A stretch of DNA of 24,885 nucleotides. Source: a virus. The DNA lies in UHGV virus genome UHGV-1445333; one strand, 5' to 3'. Made by a program: the position numbers and the translations under genes. Below are positions 13,996-19,174 of this stretch, piece after piece. Every line of letters begins with the position of its first letter. Positions within the stretch are counted from its first letter, which is position 1. The notes beneath the pieces are model-generated. The model did not search any database. It saw nothing but the letters and a program-made list of their open reading frames with translations, and had not been told where the DNA came from.

Positions 13996-14187
13996 TTATT
14001 TTTTATGCCTGTAACCCCATTCTTCCAGCAACCTTGCGGCGTACCACCCAAGAAACAAAGGAAAGAACATTACAATGAGATATTCCCCGCCACGGTCAAT
14101 GTTCGAAATTGACCAGATTACGATGTAACCAGTGCAGGACAGGAATATTACAAACCCCAAAAAGCTACTTCGTCGACTCATGCTCAC
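13996..14187 (-). CDS. Hypothetical small membrane protein, 63 aa
   Basis: ORF-track product with two hydrophobic stretches; same strand, abuts the next ORF. Confidence 0.4.
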   Translation of the reverse strand: MSMSRRSSFLGFVIFLSCTGYIVIWSISNIDRGGEYLIVMFFPLFLGWYAARLLEEWGYRHKK

Positions 14188-14447
14188 TCCTTCACTTTGA
14201 TTCCAGCGGCGCGGATAGCCTCTACATCGCTTTCGTATTGCGATTCTGCACCTGAGTCATAGCCAATGTGATAATCACCGGGAAGTGGGCCTTTCTTTGG
14301 CTTTTGCAGCTCAATTTCAATAGCTGCTCGCGATGCCTGCCACGCTTGCCAATACATCTCAACCATATTGGCGTATATTTTATTTTTAGGATCACATCCG
14401 GTGTAATTTTCAAACCATTCTTCAAACTTCTTTCTTGATTCGTCCAT
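14184..14447 (-). CDS. Hypothetical protein, 87 aa
   Basis: ORF-track product; acidic, Trp-rich; 4-nt overlap with the downstream ORF suggests coupling. Confidence 0.45.
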   Translation of the reverse strand: MDESRKKFEEWFENYTGCDPKNKIYANMVEMYWQAWQASRAAIEIELQKPKKGPLPGDYHIGYDSGAESQYESDVEAIRAAGIKVKE

Positions 14448-14464: not shown

Positions 14465-14671
14465 TCAACTCACAAAACGCCACGCCATTTTTGCTACGAC
14501 AACAGGCATAACACCGATAATCACCCACAGGAAAATGCTACCGAGAAGCACACCAACCAGGTCTTTACCTTCGCCTAACAACCGGACAAAACTGCTGGCA
14601 ACCACAATGAACGTCGCCACCATCCACATAGCACCGAGAATCCTCAATGCAGAAAAAATCAACTCAACCAC
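14465..14671 (-). CDS. Hypothetical small membrane protein, 68 aa (GTG start)
   Basis: GTG at 14671 preceded by GGGGGAGGG (6-nt spacer); product is almost entirely hydrophobic (two predicted TM helices). Confidence 0.45.
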   Translation of the reverse strand: MVELIFSALRILGAMWMVATFIVVASSFVRLLGEGKDLVGVLLGSIFLWVIIGVMPVVVAKMAWRFVS

Positions 14672-14684
14672 GATCTACCCTCCC

Positions 14685-14718
14685 CCAAATAAAAAGGCCT
14701 GCGATTACCAGCAGGCCT
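14685..14718 (-). terminator. Strong intrinsic terminator after the helicase gene (tR2-like position)
   Basis: Minus strand AGGCCUGC-UGGUAAUC-GCAGGCCU (perfect 8-bp stem) followed by UUUUUAUUUGG; begins about 30 nt after the helicase stop, where lambda has tR2 ahead of the nin genes. Confidence 0.65.
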
Positions 14719-14747: not shown

Positions 14748-16628
14748 TTAATACTCCGTCACGTTTTCCTGTCGCCACGCCTCGTCATATTCCGATTTCG
14801 GCATATTGGCGATGTAGCTATATGGCGATCCTGATTCAAGTTGCAGGAACTGGTGCGATTGCTCGTCAAGGAACAACGGGACACCACCTTCCCAACCTTC
14901 GCCGTTACGTTGTTTTTCAAGCATCAAAACAGATGCCGGAGATGCCAGTAGCTGTTCGTCCTTCTCTGACATCTTTTCACCACTCTGAACTCTCTGTAAC
15001 GCTCTCTCGCGAGCCTTGTTACGCCAGATGATGAAAAGGTTGTCTGTCAGGTCTGTTATCGCTCCAGAGCCTTTTACGTCCATTTTCCCGGTTGGTTTTT
15101 CTTCGCTGTCACCTTTTCGCGAGTGAGTAACGAGAATGACGTGGGAGTTTGTTTTGTTTTTGAAATCGCAAATCGAGTCAACAAACGCCTTCTGCCCGTT
15201 ATAGTCATCGTCGCCTATGCCACATTTCATCAGGCTGTCGATGATGAATAACTGGATGCCGTATCGGCGGCGAGCGTAGTCGAATATTTCGATCAGCCTG
15301 TCGGCTTTCGCCGTTCCGGTCAGGCCAAACACCCAAAGTCTTTCGTCATAAAATTTAAATGCAGAGTCAATTTCCAGCACTGGCGGCATCTTGCAGCACG
15401 TCGCCTGACGGGTAAGGCGCTTAAGGAGAATACCAGGCTTCAGCTCAAGTGACGCGATGCACGTCTTCACACCCTGACGCATTGCCTCAAGTGCCATATG
15501 CCCGACAACCTCCGTTTTTCCGTGACCGTTCACACCATTGACCAGCGTCAACTCTGCCTCACGGAACTGGAATTTATCTGCCAGAGATTCCCACGGTGGA
15601 TTAAACAGATACTGCTGCTTGCCGTAGAAAGCGTTGATAGTGTCCTGGTAAAACTCTCGCGCACTGTAGAGTTCTTCAGGATCGAAGTAGGATGCCGTGC
15701 CGATGTACTGCCAGATTTCATCCTCGGTAACACCGTTCATCAGGCATTCGTTGATGTCTTTGTACGGCAGAGTAACAAGACGGCAACGATGTTCACCGAG
15801 TCGGCTTGCGATTTCCCTTGCGGCTTCACGACCAACATCATCAACGTCCATCGAGATGAATATTTCCTCAAACCTGTCGAGGTTGTGGTACTCAAACTCA
15901 ATCCACTGTTGCTTAGCGCCTTTCCCGCCACCAAACGGCACGGATAACGCCGAGATGCCGTATTGCGCATAGCTCATACAATCAATTTCGCCTTCGCAAA
16001 GTACAACCGCCCTCACGCCAGCGTCCAGAGCCTGCCATCCGAACAGACAAGGTTCGCAATCACCTTCTGCCATAATGACTTTCTTCCCGTCCGGGCGCTC
16101 AGTGCTGATTCGCTTGACCTGCAACAACTCACCATCGCGTTTGTACGGAAGCACCAGTGCATCAAGTTCTCGTTCTCCATTCCACACCTTGCCGCTGACA
16201 ACCTCGTAGCGCTTTACGACTTCTGGCGATATGCCACGCGATTGCAGGTACTCAAGATGGGATTCTGTTCTGGTAACGTAGCGGGCGATTTTCTTGCGGT
16301 CAGGTCTGGAGAATTTCTTCTCACGTCTGGCATCGAAATGGTGATCGTCATCCTTGATTCCGAGAAAGGCTTTCGCTTCCTGCATAGCCTGATGCAGGTT
16401 AATTCCACGACATGCCATCCACAAATCAAGCATGTCACCGCCGTCTCCCTCAGCGAAATCAGCCCATTTTTTCTTGCCGCTAAGGTTGACCTTAAGGCTG
16501 TTTCCCTTGTCACCGTTGACGTTACCGGCAACCCACTCATGCCCCTCTTTCTTGCCATTTGGCAACAGGTGCGGAGCCACCCTGTCAACCTGCGCCCAAA
16601 GCAGGTCGCTAAGTTCACTTGGCCTCAT
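14748..16628 (-). CDS. Bifunctional DNA primase (TOPRIM) / DnaB-family replicative helicase, 626 aa
   Basis: TOPRIM-like acidic motif (VVLCEGEIDCMSYAQYG) in the middle; Walker A (NGVNGHGKTE) and Walker B-like (LFIIDSL) in the C-terminal half; follows the O-like initiator in place of lambda P. Confidence 0.85.
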   Translation of the reverse strand: MRPSELSDLLWAQVDRVAPHLLPNGKKEGHEWVAGNVNGDKGNSLKVNLSGKKKWADFAEGDGGDMLDLWMACRGINLHQAMQEAKAFLGIKDDDHHFDARREKKFSRPDRKKIARYVTRTESHLEYLQSRGISPEVVKRYEVVSGKVWNGERELDALVLPYKRDGELLQVKRISTERPDGKKVIMAEGDCEPCLFGWQALDAGVRAVVLCEGEIDCMSYAQYGISALSVPFGGGKGAKQQWIEFEYHNLDRFEEIFISMDVDDVGREAAREIASRLGEHRCRLVTLPYKDINECLMNGVTEDEIWQYIGTASYFDPEELYSAREFYQDTINAFYGKQQYLFNPPWESLADKFQFREAELTLVNGVNGHGKTEVVGHMALEAMRQGVKTCIASLELKPGILLKRLTRQATCCKMPPVLEIDSAFKFYDERLWVFGLTGTAKADRLIEIFDYARRRYGIQLFIIDSLMKCGIGDDDYNGQKAFVDSICDFKNKTNSHVILVTHSRKGDSEEKPTGKMDVKGSGAITDLTDNLFIIWRNKARERALQRVQSGEKMSEKDEQLLASPASVLMLEKQRNGEGWEGGVPLFLDEQSHQFLQLESGSPYSYIANMPKSEYDEAWRQENVTEY

Positions 16629-16732
16629 GATTCCCTCAGATTGAAATTTTTAAACCAGAAATCGACAAACGAAATACTTAACCAGCCGTGGTTATAACCA
16701 GCGACCAGTAGCGATTTGATTTTTGATTTCAT
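16625..16732 (-). CDS. Possible 35-aa micro-ORF bridging the O and helicase genes
   Basis: Read by hand: ATG 3 nt after the O stop, TGA overlapping the helicase ATG (ATGA); product MKSKIKSLLVAGYNHGWLSISFVDFWFKNFNLRES; weak SD. Confidence 0.25.
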   Translation of the reverse strand: MKSKIKSLLVAGYNHGWLSISFVDFWFKNFNLRES

Positions 16733-16735
16733 GGT

Positions 16736-17596
16736 TCACCTGTCGAAAAACACGTAGCCAGTTTTCGATACGGTGATTGCGGATGATGGTTTGGATTGTG
16801 GTTGAATAGTTTCTGGCTTCTCGTCGTTCCAGCGTTGACCGTTCAGGTAGCTCGATGGTAACAACCTGTCGAATCCGAACTGCTTACCATTCCTGCATGC
16901 GATGTCTTCTGCCAGCATCGTGGCAAACTCGCTTGCCGTACCCCTGGTAGTTTTACGCCATTCCCTGAACTGTGTTCTGAATGCCGAAGCTGCGTTTTTC
17001 TTCCCGGCCTTCCGCATGCCTGCACACCAGAATATTTCCTCGAATGCCTTGTCGGTTTCTTCGTGACGGTCAGGTGATTTTTCACACTCCGTCCGAACAC
17101 TTTCGGACATAGTGTTTTTATTATTTCTTTTTTCTTTTGTAATAGTTTCTTTTGTGTGTCCCTGTTTTGGTGACAGCGCTGTCACCGTTTTGGTGACACT
17201 TTTTGTCACCAATGCAGTGACATTATCACCAGAGTAGTGACACCCTTCGATTTGCCATTCCTCGATGTTCTTGTTAGGCCCGATTTGCTGGCCTTCGCGA
17301 AGGATAACCTTCATCGCGATAAGCTCATTCTTGGCTTTGTTTACCTTCTGTCTTGGCAGCCGGGTAATTTGAGCTAACTGACTATCAGAGATGCGATCCA
17401 TCTTTTTACCGTAGCCGTATGTTTTACGGCATATGGCGTGGGCAACCTTGCTCTGATTTTTCGTTAAATCTGCGCCGATAAGCTCTTCATACAGGGCATT
17501 TGCAAGACGGGTATAACCATCTTCAACTTCTGCCACACGACGCTCCACAGGCCGTTGTGAAGGCCTTAAATGTGTTACGGTTGCAAGATTACTCAT
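16736..17596 (-). CDS. O: Replication initiator, lambda O-like, 286 aa
   Basis: N-terminal domain [55 protein letters not shown] aligns with lambda O (DGYARLSNMLLEAYSGADLTKRQFKVLLAILRKTYGWNKPMDRITDSQLSEITKL); iterons lie inside the gene as in lambda. Confidence 0.82.
17105..17246. repeat. Replication origin: four iterons with a roughly 22-23 bp period plus an adjacent AT-rich tract, inside the O-like gene
   Basis: GGTGACAGCGCTGTCACC (17169-17186), GGTGACACTTTTTGTCACC (17192-17210), GCAGTGACATTATCACC (17214-17230), GTAGTGACACCC (17235-17246); AT-rich 17105-17160 follows in the direction of O transcription, as in lambda ori. Confidence 0.6.
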
Positions 17597-17735
17597 GACC
17601 TTTCTCCTTCTGCATCAGCTTCACTTTTTCCAACTCAGCCCGGAATCGACCAGGCTGCTTGAAGCTGGACAGGAAGCGATCACGTAGTATGTGTTTGTGA
17701 ATTTTGTCCTGGTAAGGACTGAGTTGTTTTGTCAT
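17589..17735 (-). CDS. Hypothetical 48-aa protein between cII and O
   Basis: Read by hand: ATG at 17735 with SD AGGAG (5-nt spacer); product [48 protein letters not shown]; its stop overlaps the O start region. Confidence 0.4.
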
Positions 17736-17769: not shown

Positions 17770-18048
17770 TCAGGCCTCGAAGAATTCGCCGTTCTTCGGG
17801 GCTTTTTCTTTTGTCAGCATTCTGGCTACTTTCTTAGCCAGTTCCGCCAACTCCTCGTCTTCAACACCCCATTCAAGAACAGCCAGAAGCATTCCCATTT
17901 TTGGGATAAAGCTGTCTTTCCATCGCGAAATTTGCGATTCATTGATCCCTAATGCATCAGCAACCTTTCGCTGACCACGTACAGCAATTCGATTCAGGAT
18001 GTTGCTTGTAATTGCATTCGCTTTCTTGCGAGTACTTGTAAGTTCCAT
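17770..18048 (-). CDS. cII: CII transcriptional activator, 92 aa
   Basis: Track ORF trimmed to ATG 18048; upstream TAAGGAAATACTTACAT matches the lambda cII leader I recall; SQISRWK...[13 protein letters not shown] core matches lambda CII. Confidence 0.85.
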
Positions 18049-18107
18049 ATGTAAGTATTTCCTTAACAAATAAGAAGTTATGCGCATCAACTTATGCGCG
18101 TTGTATT

Positions 18108-18150
18108 CCCGCATTTCGGCGGGAATGAGGACCATGACTGTTAAAGAGCG
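18108..18150 (-). promoter_or_regulatory. nutR (boxA CGCTCTTTAACA + boxB hairpin)
   Basis: Minus strand: boxA CGCTCTTTAACA (18150-18139) and boxB CCCGC-CGAAAT-GCGGG (18123-18108), between cro and cII; boxB is identical to the one at nutL. Confidence 0.65.
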
Positions 18151-18156
18151 GTGTTA

Positions 18157-18351
18157 CTATTTGTTTTTCTTGTTGCTTGGGAAAGGACGAACTTCCTCTC
18201 CAATCACACTGCCATCAGGCTTTACCGTAACCATAATGTTACGGCCTGCCAGAATGGCCTTGCTGATAGCGCACTGGATTACACCAAAGTCACTGGCTGC
18301 TTTAGCCTGTCCATGGATTTTGGCGTAATCGGCAAGTGTCATTCGAATCAT
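18157..18351 (-). CDS. cro: Cro repressor, 64 aa
   Basis: Product [37 protein letters not shown]...PFPSNKK aligns with lambda Cro ([38 protein letters not shown]...); start at ATG 18351 with SD GGAGAG; the track ORF began at an upstream GTG. Confidence 0.85.
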
Positions 18352-18380
18352 ATGCACTCTCCGTTATTAACCATGAACAA

Positions 18381-18457: not shown

Positions 18458-19174
18458 ATGGAAAATAAAAAATCACTGACGACAGAACAGCTGGAAGACG
18501 CTAAGCGGCTTAAGGCTTTGTATGAGTCAAAAAAGAAAGAATTGGGAATAACCCAATACTCAATCGCTGATGAACTGGGTATCACCCAAGGAGCGGTAGG
18601 GCATTATCTTAATGGCAGAAATGCGCTAAACGTTGAGGTTGCATCTGGTTTTGCACGATTGTTGCAAGTCTCAATTGCTGATTTTAGCCAGTCAATTGCT
18701 GCCAAGGTTGCAGAACAGGCAGAAAGCCTTAAGAGCGATGCCAACGTAAGGTATGCAGGGGAATACAGAGCAGGAAAGAGGTATCCGGTGTTAAGCAGTA
18801 TCCAGGCTGGCTCGTGGTGTGAAGCATGCGAACCATACACCATTAAAGACATAGATGTTTGGCTTGAGTCTGACGCGCATATTCAAGGTAATGCGTTCTG
18901 GCTTAAAGTGGAAGGTGATTCAATGACGGCACCGGTTGGGTTAAGCATTCCAGAGGGAACATTCGTTCTTTTCGATACCGGAAGGGAGGCGATCAACGGC
19001 AGCTTGGTCATAGCAAAACTTTCTGACTCTAACGAAGCAACATTCAAGAAGCTGATAATCGACGGCGGAAATAAATACCTCAAGGGACTTAATCCTGCAT
19101 GGCCTCTCGTGCCAATCAATGGAAACTGCAAGATTATAGGCGTTGCAATTGAGACAAAACTCAGACTGGTTTGA
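18458..19174 (+). CDS. cI: CI repressor (HTH plus S24 LexA-like autocleavage domain), 238 aa
   Basis: N-terminal block LTTEQLEDAKRLKALYESKKKELG parallels lambda CI; Ala-Gly cleavage site (SIQAGSW), catalytic Ser in GDSM and Lys in FKKL; no SD, consistent with a leaderless pRM transcript. Confidence 0.9.
   Translation: MENKKSLTTEQLEDAKRLKALYESKKKELGITQYSIADELGITQGAVGHYLNGRNALNVEVASGFARLLQVSIADFSQSIAAKVAEQAESLKSDANVRYAGEYRAGKRYPVLSSIQAGSWCEACEPYTIKDIDVWLESDAHIQGNAFWLKVEGDSMTAPVGLSIPEGTFVLFDTGREAINGSLVIAKLSDSNEATFKKLIIDGGNKYLKGLNPAWPLVPINGNCKIIGVAIETKLRLV

Follow-up and report, generated by a model that had tools for sequence, protein, structure and literature searches.

How does a temperate phage start its replication when the initiator resembles lambda O and no lambda P follows? 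This question is raised by positions 14748-17596 of the virus genome UHGV-1445333, whose whole stretch of 24,885 nucleotides (nt), called the window here, was analysed. Three minus-strand open reading frames (ORFs) of the same orientation lie in this segment according to the ORF list, namely an initiator of 286 amino acids (aa), a micro-ORF of 35 aa and a primase-helicase of 626 aa. Judging by their length and highly significant family matches, these are not chance ORFs, and they very probably form an ES18/mEp043-type replication module of a lambdoid (P22-like) prophage. The cassette is already known and has been annotated and described since 2005. What is added here is a survey of how the initiator tail and the micro-ORF are linked to the primase-helicase, the gene-like behaviour of the micro-ORF, and a primase ribbon domain without zinc ligands.

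Relatives and earlier descriptions

The 3.2-kilobase region shares 99% DNA identity with mEp043 and Sf101, 92% with SEN22 and 88% with ES18 and epsilon34, and at least a partial match was found in 2069 of 5426 complete E. coli genomes. Gene order, gene sizes and an origin within the initiator gene are the same in ES18 (genes 59-60-61), epsilon34 (gp50-52), g341c, SEN22, mEp043 and Sf101. As in ES18, an initiator with the tail described below, a 35-codon ORF and a gp61-like enzyme are contiguous and co-oriented after cII. The GenBank record of ES18 (2005) lists gp59 as 'similar to lambda gpO', a 'rep_origin similar to lambda ori', a 35-aa gp60, and gp61 as 'putative primase/helicase; similar to phage T7 gene 4'. 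Papers dealing with the module date from 2008, 2012, 2022 and 2023: the epsilon34 paper speaks of 'the ES18 DNA replication gene region' (PMC2629481), TOPRIM and gp4d-helicase domains were described for Phi24B (PMC3430580), the version found in Stx phages was named Eru5 (PMC8951638), and the same reading of the module is given in PMC10307801.

A lambda-O-type initiator with a different C-terminus

The sequence-only reading of this DNA had proposed a lambda-O-type N-terminal domain followed by a C-terminal domain unlike that of lambda, and both parts of the claim hold. Phage_rep_O (Pfam PF04492) matches the initiator with E 1e-37 and 128.8 bits (cut-off 28.7), phage_O_Nterm (NCBIfam TIGR01610) with E 2e-30 and 105.3 bits (cut-off 45.5), and the 49% identity to lambda O is confined to aa 1-157, with no BLASTP alignment to lambda O past aa 157. 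On these matches, the initiator is a member of the lambda O family through its N-terminal domain only. The remainder (aa 158-286) has no match to any Pfam family, and the initiator none among solved structures; its core corresponds to phrog_33384. Identity to ES18 gp59 is 68% overall, with near-identity from aa ~160 onwards and ~95% in the C-terminal domain. Identity in the core is likewise ~96-97% to Phi24B, where the N-terminus of 'O' is an unrelated HTH_36 domain of the winged-helix kind, and 45% to phage Fraca, where the core stands behind a third N-terminal type. Protein searches with the C-terminal domain gave 60 and 1139 matches, and in these listings, consisting mostly of near-identical enteric sequences, the domain is found behind PF04492 or PF13730 N-termini. 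An AlphaFold2 model built from a 12-sequence alignment (mean pLDDT 49.5, pTM 0.31) predicts a helical core at ~aa 179-236 with a disordered linker and tail, a low-confidence picture to be read qualitatively only. In one prophage (L069 5001-6200), the initiator gene breaks off inside the C-terminal domain and continues as unrelated phage sequence, and both micro-ORF and helicase are absent; this prophage is probably decayed or rearranged.

A gp4-like primase-helicase without zinc ligands

The partner gene had been read as a TOPRIM primase fused to a DnaB-family helicase. The domain search bears out the fusion, but the assignment to the DnaB family proper could not be maintained. The 626-aa protein belongs to phrog_239 'DNA primase/helicase' (E 3e-171) and contains a Toprim_2 domain (E 3e-12) followed by AAA_25 at aa 357-507 (28.0 bits, cut-off 27), while the DnaB_C match stays just under its cut-off of 27 with 23.8 bits, and the DnaB N-terminal domain (PF00772) has no Pfam match in the protein. 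The closest solved relatives are T7 gp4 (5ikn, 6n7i; E ~3e-23, a single alignment over aa 192-539) and also Twinkle. By these comparisons 'DnaB-family' applies at the level of the SF4 superfamily only, and the protein is gp4/Twinkle-like. It shares 94% aa identity with ES18 gp61.

A family alignment of five members with 43-100% identity, including ES18, Fraca, one Vibrio phage and one Pseudomonas phage, was used to follow the catalytic residues. The acidic TOPRIM residues E212, D261, D263 and D291 are invariant and align with the EGEID, DMDEAG and KDANE motifs of T7 gp4, and the helicase part shows an invariant Walker A motif GxxGHGK(T/S) with K371 as well as D464, H502 and R574. Their T7 gp4 counterparts we take to be E157, D207, D209, D237, K318, D424, H465 and R522. 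The N-terminal ~90 residues correspond to the zinc ribbon of DnaG and gp4; this region matches dnaG (TIGR01391) over aa 26-143 with E 1.5e-9, and Pfam Zn_ribbon_DnaG remains sub-threshold (E 0.066). None of the five members has Cys or His at any of the four zinc-ligand positions, yet ~20 other ribbon positions are invariant, which points to purifying selection on the ribbon domain. In T7 gp4, the zinc ribbon is needed for recognition of template and primer sites and for de novo priming. The intact TOPRIM site and the strongly conserved ribbon argue for an active, if unusual, primase.

Two further observations concern this gene. Its C-terminus (14748-14810) is acidic and its last residue is aromatic, ...SEYDEAWRQENVTEY, and the Fraca version also ends in Y; T7 gp4 holds its polymerase by an acidic, Phe-terminated tail, though the resemblance may mean nothing. 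In many Stx2 phages (L003 2838-5741, which is the 'P' of Phi24B; Stx2a_F403, Min27, phiKp_30) the primase-helicase is 968 aa long and carries a ~330-aa intein with Hint and LAGLIDADG domains in the Walker A loop, inserted between GHGK and T. The window copy has none, and the intein of Stx2 phages is already published (PMC3430580).

Linkage of initiator tail and micro-ORF to the primase-helicase

Which part of the initiator goes with which partner was surveyed in 317 IMG/VR loci from four scans, seeded with the window initiator's N-terminal domain, the primase-helicase, the lambda O N-terminal domain and the HTH_36 domain of the Phi24B 'O'. The loci were classified by tblastn, and removal of duplicates and truncated loci left 206 distinct ones. 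The first two scans were almost clonal, and the diversity of partners came from the lambda O and HTH_36 scans. The primase-helicase was present in 121 of the 206 loci and was preceded by the micro-ORF and an initiator with a C-terminal tail of 19 residues in 120 of them, the single exception being a locus cut 49 nt upstream of the primase-helicase gene. Neither tail nor micro-ORF occurred in loci lacking the primase-helicase (0 of 85). N-terminal partners of the enzyme, with at least three different DNA-binding domains among them, comprised window-type O, lambda-type O, HTH_36 and unclassified domains. In 56 distinct loci, N-terminal domains 100% identical to lambda O went with the C-terminal domain of lambda and with lambda P, and HTH_36 initiators were also seen with lambda-P-like (18) or P22-gp12-like (5) partners. 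The C-terminal core was present in enteric loci only together with the primase-helicase, and curated phage genomes gave the same linkage. A comparison of initiator C-termini with partner types had been suggested as a check on the sequence-only reading; over the 206 distinct loci, the C-terminal type does track the type of partner.

At ~17105-17175, directly past the origin, the DNA becomes at least 90% identical to Phi24B and ES18, up from ~40-50%. Taken together with the survey, this switch implies joint inheritance of the N-terminal domain and the iterons on the one hand and of C-terminus and partner on the other. Two mosaic units meet at this joint, one of N-terminal domain and iterons and one of C-terminal domain, micro-ORF and primase-helicase. 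In the classical lambda scheme, ori is recognised by the N-terminus of O and P by its C-terminus. This two-domain logic of lambda O is partly restated in the epsilon34 paper (PMC2629481).

The linkage can be narrowed further. Five IMG/VR loci (L284-L288) and eight S107-type Salmonella phages differ in their central domain, which is weakly DnaT-like and shows a W..W..N motif, and keep an identical 19-residue tail, the micro-ORF and the primase-helicase; identity of an L284-type locus to the window begins exactly at the tail and runs through micro-ORF and helicase. The Vibrio phages D65 (L327 3129-4365) and PVA1 (L326 3213-4400) combine an HTH_36 N-terminus with a relative of the core (41-44%) that lacks the tail. 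Their initiator is followed by an ORF of 165-173 aa that weakly matches phrog_109, 'P-like helicase loader' (E ~1e-4; sub-threshold in Pfam), and in which the motif WPPSVGQFV was noticed. Both cases weaken the whole C-terminal domain, or its helical core, as the determinant of the partner, and the distribution suggests that the core domain existed before it became associated with the primase-helicase. Of the initiator segments, only the 19-residue tail accompanies the enteric primase-helicase in every complete locus.

Micro-ORF

The claim that a 35-aa micro-ORF is translationally coupled between initiator and partner was confirmed at its junctions, which can be read directly in the sequence. 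Its ATG lies 3 nt past the initiator TGA, with an AGGTGA Shine-Dalgarno sequence overlapping the initiator stop, and its TGA overlaps the ATG of the primase-helicase as ATGA, preceded by GAGGGA. Upstream, the initiator ATG was likewise read within the final codons of the DUF2740 ORF. The window allele, MKSKIKSLLVAGYNHGWLSISFVDFWFKNFNLRES, belongs to phrog_21848 (E 4e-25); a second enteric allele, MKSRIKSLLIAGYNHGWLSSAFVEFWFNRLDLRSA, is 69% identical to it, and the Fraca allele, MKRILKRLLVAGYNRGFLREEFVTMCFIKFDLRSV, 51%. All three are exactly 35 codons long, are start/stop-coupled on both sides (ATGA, TAATG or TGATG) and share the core LLVAGYNxG..L...FV...F..F.LR. Pairwise ratios of non-synonymous to synonymous substitution rates (dN/dS) were 0.29-0.50 in frame and, out of frame, where 2-4 stops occur, 0.85-2.0; since they rest on small samples of 25-44 differences, these ratios are supportive rather than decisive. 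The micro-ORF is annotated in ES18, epsilon34 and g341c and is left unannotated by PGAP in RefSeq E. coli genomes and also in the records of Fraca and S107 (unannotated positions: L325 17029-17137, L322 2395-2502, L328 1397-1501).

The Vibrio and Pseudomonas versions of the module have no micro-ORF, and the initiator overlaps the helicase gene directly. In eight IMG/VR loci (L073 ~5966-6460), a free-standing HNH endonuclease of 164 aa (NUMOD4 and HNH_3) sits exactly between the micro-ORF stop and the primase-helicase start and breaks the direct coupling there. The RNA of the micro-ORF region, folded as a single sequence, folds better than shuffled versions (z -2.45), with the Shine-Dalgarno sequence and AUG inside a hairpin. 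A reading of the region as an RNA element was not retained: the consensus fold of five sequences lacks supporting covariation, its covariation term being unfavourable (+0.92) with many broken pairs.

Origin within the initiator gene

The origin elements lie within the initiator gene, just past the segment for the N-terminal domain. Four dyad-symmetric iterons, spaced 20-24 base pairs (bp), cluster there, compared with ~0.9 matches expected by chance across the whole window. The adjoining A/T-rich tract is presumed to be the DNA-unwinding element; the equivalent A/T-rich position in lambda is just past iteron 4. This layout is the one annotated as ori in lambda, ES18 and P22. The iterons of lambda and ES18 read TCCCTC-N5-GAGGGA, those of the window and of an mEp043-like locus are of the TGTCAC type, and iteron sequence co-varies with the type of initiator N-terminal domain. 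That of ES18 is ~94% lambda-like (PMC2629481). A fifth iteron-like match inside the primase-helicase gene (16508-16526, at most 2 mismatches) was discarded as lying within the chance expectation of ~0.9 per window; it is also present in Phi24B, which carries a different initiator.

Initiators of the HTH_36 type (L284-L288, L003; codons ~95-140) contain 2-6 tandem copies of a repeat encoding GGAGADR, whose copy number differs between otherwise near-identical phages. These repeats are presumably the iterons of the HTH_36-type origin read as protein.

Mechanism and alternative explanations

After transcription from pR, the initiator would bind the iterons and distort or open the adjacent A/T-rich tract. 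Its C-terminal region, most probably including the 19-residue tail, would then bring a hexameric phage primase-helicase to the opened origin, where the enzyme may open its ring to load itself in the manner of T7 gp4 and Twinkle, unwind the DNA and provide the host Pol III holoenzyme with primers. In this way the module would replace lambda P together with host DnaB, its DnaC-independent loading and DnaG, and the tight coupling of the three genes might set their stoichiometry. That the phage loads its own helicase and does not recruit host DnaB had been proposed from the sequence, and independence from host DnaB and DnaG is a reasonable inference, because the near-identical prophage has no P- or DnaC-like gene and self-loading is known for gp4-type enzymes; ring opening without a loader by gp4/Twinkle-type helicases has been reviewed (PMC3401641). 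The hexameric ring, self-loading, and the primase and 5'-3' helicase activities of the 626-aa protein are inferred from its family membership and from this review.

Several points weigh against this reading. Our literature search found no experiment on the host-factor independence of the module or on a contact between initiator and helicase, and according to PMC8951638 the way in which non-O/P modules of Stx phages replicate is not known. In the absence of a Cys4/CHC2 zinc site, competence for priming is not guaranteed. The AlphaFold2 model of the initiator is too poor for any structural claim, the surveyed loci are mutually related, so that the counts overstate independent events, and relatives of the core occur in D65 and PVA1 without this primase-helicase. 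One could imagine that the 626-aa protein is a helicase only, with a primase that is dead as in metazoan Twinkle and host DnaG still priming at the phage fork. The four zinc-ligand positions that are never Cys or His, the sub-threshold Zn_ribbon_DnaG match and the textbook role of the T7 gp4 ribbon in template recognition are in line with this; we nevertheless find it quite unlikely, given the four TOPRIM acids that stay invariant across 43-100% identity, the purifying selection visible in ~20 positions of the zinc-less ribbon, and the fact that DnaG is normally recruited via the DnaB N-terminal domain, absent from this protein. Still less credible, indeed very improbable, is that host DnaB continues to serve theta replication and that the primase-helicase is auxiliary, acting e.g. 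in late rolling-circle or recombination-dependent replication. A lambda-like N-terminal domain and origin would suit such a division of labour; however, no loader gene, whether P-like, DnaC-like or of another kind, lies in the region, the enzyme occupies the exact slot of lambda P or P22 gp12 in a translational chain with the initiator, the initiator does not have the P-binding C-terminal domain of lambda, and initiator C-terminus and partner type switch together.

The meaning of the tail is more evenly balanced. Its linkage fits a docking peptide and also hitch-hiking near a recombination joint, and the two seem inseparable on the present sequences. Under hitch-hiking, which could by itself produce the linkage, the partner would be contacted by the helical core or not at all, the helicase finding the melted origin unaided. 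We take this as a serious contender, leaning only slightly away from it. The tail is no more than ~170 bp away from the helicase gene and adjoins a recombination joint, identity to the L284-type locus sets in abruptly at the tail as a simple crossover predicts, and in the more distant modules (helicase identity 61% in Fraca, 60% in Vibrio and 43% in Pseudomonas) the tail is loosely recognisable at best in the Fraca initiator and absent from those of Vibrio and Pseudomonas. On the other hand, an identical tail is retained behind two central domains with no relation to each other, the joint coincides exactly with the domain boundary and does not cut into the tail, and the related helical core that lacks a tail adjoins a weakly P-like ORF. 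For the micro-ORF, the corresponding alternative is that the 35 codons give no functional protein and that a 108-nt spacer relays ribosomes in the manner of a leader peptide, or that RNA structure tunes helicase expression. The direct initiator-helicase overlap in Vibrio and Pseudomonas, the favourable single-sequence fold with its start signals in a hairpin, the homing endonuclease that separates micro-ORF and helicase in eight loci, a 1-nt deletion near the start in one variant and the missing PGAP annotation speak for it. We find it rather doubtful, since a length of 35 codons and the shared core are kept in three alleles down to 51% aa and 58-62% nt identity, dN/dS is low in frame only, the ORF has its own Shine-Dalgarno sequence, and the unfavourable covariation term with its many broken pairs counts against a structural role of the RNA. 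As far as its sequence tells, the micro-ORF thus most likely represents a genuine small gene belonging to the enteric lineage, and its product is probably a micro-protein with a role of its own. A bolder proposal, which we put forward as speculation and think unlikely as a whole, is that the tail is a portable docking peptide for the primase-helicase and the micro-protein a third component, together targeting a self-loading, zinc-less gp4-like enzyme to iteron origins. If so, any DNA-binding domain equipped with the tail would acquire replication independent of DnaB, DnaC and DnaG.

Comparison with known replication systems

With the O-P system of lambda the module shares its position in the pR operon after cII, a homologous iteron-binding N-terminal domain, four dyad-symmetric iterons with an A/T-rich tract and a palindrome within the initiator gene, and apparently the division of labour between an origin-reading N-terminal and a partner-reading C-terminal domain. 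It differs from lambda in a dissimilar C-terminal domain, in the extra 35-codon gene between initiator and partner, and in the partner itself, which is an enzyme and not a loader that captures host DnaB; neither Pfam, PHROG nor the annotation of a near-identical prophage gave a Phage_lambda_P match in the region. Within the ES18 group, ES18 and epsilon34 combine iterons of the lambda type with an N-terminal domain that shares ~94% identity with lambda O, in contrast to the window, mEp043 and Sf101 (49%, with TGTCAC-N7-GGTGACA). The gene 18 - gene 12 pair of P22 offers a similar arrangement of an O-like initiator (45% over aa 1-159), an internal origin and a phage SF4 helicase in place of P, but gp12 is a DnaB-type helicase without primase domain, unlike the fused, gp4-like enzyme of the window, and the C-terminal domains of the two initiators are unrelated. 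P22 gp12 works with host DnaG according to Wickner (1984) as cited in PMC8022706.

With T7 gp4 and Twinkle the enzyme shares the order of ribbon, RNA-polymerase/TOPRIM domain, linker and SF4 helicase, and the acidic TOPRIM residues, Walker A and B, the H3 histidine and the arginine finger are conserved. Identity is only ~25%, however, and the window ribbon is without zinc ligands. The life styles differ as well: on the side of the window stand a temperate phage, an origin with iterons, an initiator protein and presumably the Pol III of the host, on that of T7 a phage polymerase and transcription-primed origins. Phi24B O/P and Eru5 (reference Stx2a_F403) share the primase-helicase (97-98%), the initiator C-terminal domain, the tail and the micro-ORF family, of which they carry the second allele; they differ by their HTH_36 N-terminus with GGAGADR-encoding repeats and by the Walker A intein, in place of which the window has Phage_rep_O and an intein-free enzyme. 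Eru5 is recognised by an HTH_36 protein and then a primase directly upstream of cI; in the window, cro and cII intervene.

P4 alpha, N15 RepA and RSF1010 RepA/B/C provide their own helicase and primase and use host Pol III without host DnaB, DnaC or DnaG. Origin binding, primase and helicase reside in one polypeptide in P4 and N15, and in three unrelated proteins in RSF1010. We know of no sequence relationship between these replication proteins and the window initiator. They are a functional precedent for the mechanism suggested here, and P22 gp12 is a precedent for the helicase only.

Gene neighbourhood

The module is part of an early-right operon of lambdoid type on the minus strand, with a divergent cI-type repressor on the plus strand (Table 1). 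ninB and two small ORFs follow the 626-aa gene on the minus strand. The hairpin behind the primase-helicase has an 8-bp stem with 6 GC pairs and continues into the T-run TTTTATTT; this pattern match from a consensus scan alone predicts a terminator that likely marks the end of the replication gene block, at a tR2-like position. It is placed like lambda tR2 or the terminator of the P22 ninA region. The two small ORFs, both conserved, encode a hydrophobic protein of 68 aa (14465-14671, phrog_1165) and one of 87 aa (14184-14447, phrog_343), the latter with a Glyoxalase_4 match that is sub-threshold only. Rfam and tRNA scans of the whole window gave no match. A near-identical annotated E. coli prophage has P22-like virion genes; no other replication gene is annotated in it between cI and Q, and no P-, DnaC- or DnaB-like gene.

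Table 1. Coordinates of the replication module, its domains and origin elements, and adjoining genes in the window (aa, residues of the respective protein).
Feature	Positions	Strand	Basis or remark
Terminator-like hairpin	14685-14718	-	30 nt past primase-helicase stop; consensus scan
Primase-helicase, 626 aa, T7 gp4/Twinkle type	14748-16628	-	phrog_239
SF4 helicase domain, aa 355-594	14847-15566	-	Walker A GVNGHGKT (K371), Walker B D464, H502, R574; span of the DnaB_C match
TOPRIM catalytic domain, aa 209-296	15741-16004	-	Toprim_2; E212, D261, D263, D291
Zinc-ribbon homologue without zinc ligands, aa 26-92	16353-16553	-	TIGR01391; Pfam sub-threshold
Micro-ORF, 35 codons	16625-16732	-	Start/stop-coupled on both sides; equivalent of ES18 gp60 and epsilon34 gp51
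Initiator, 286 aa	16736-17596	-	Lambda-O-type N-terminal domain, origin-encoded linker, non-lambda C-terminal domain
C-terminal tail, aa 268-286, candidate docking peptide	16739-16795	-	Linkage to primase-helicase
C-terminal core, aa 158-267	16796-17125	-	phrog_33384
Inverted repeat, 14-nt arms, 4-nt gap	17084-17115		Flanks A/T-rich tract; site of the mosaic joint with modules of Phi24B/ES18 type
A/T-rich tract, 57 bp, 25% GC	17100-17156		Adjoins iterons; presumed DNA-unwinding element
Four ~19-bp dyad-symmetric iterons, TGTCAC-N7-GGTGACA	17157-17175, 17180-17198, 17204-17222, 17224-17243		Repeat scan
Phage_rep_O (iteron-binding) domain, aa 20-114	17255-17539	-	Pfam and NCBIfam
48-aa DUF2740 ORF (P22 orf48 homologue)	17589-17735	-	Same operon, upstream of initiator
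cII	17770-18135	-	
cro	18157-18357	-	
cI-type repressor	18458-19174	+	Divergent neighbour of minus-strand operon

Implications

As a discovery the module carries small weight, as it is common (mEp043, Sf101, ES18, epsilon34 and many Stx2 phages) and its gene content has been described repeatedly. The survey narrows the candidate recruitment element to the 19-residue tail and flags a conserved micro-protein that many annotations omit. The tail linkage, the micro-protein and the zinc-less ribbon are modest leads, directly testable in the laboratory phage mEp043. Beyond this, Stx2a phages of clinical importance replicate by modules of the Eru5 type, and the dosage of the toxin gene is set by phage replication. 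Host-range and induction behaviour would be explained by knowledge of whether DnaB and DnaG are bypassed and of the way in which the initiator brings in the helicase.

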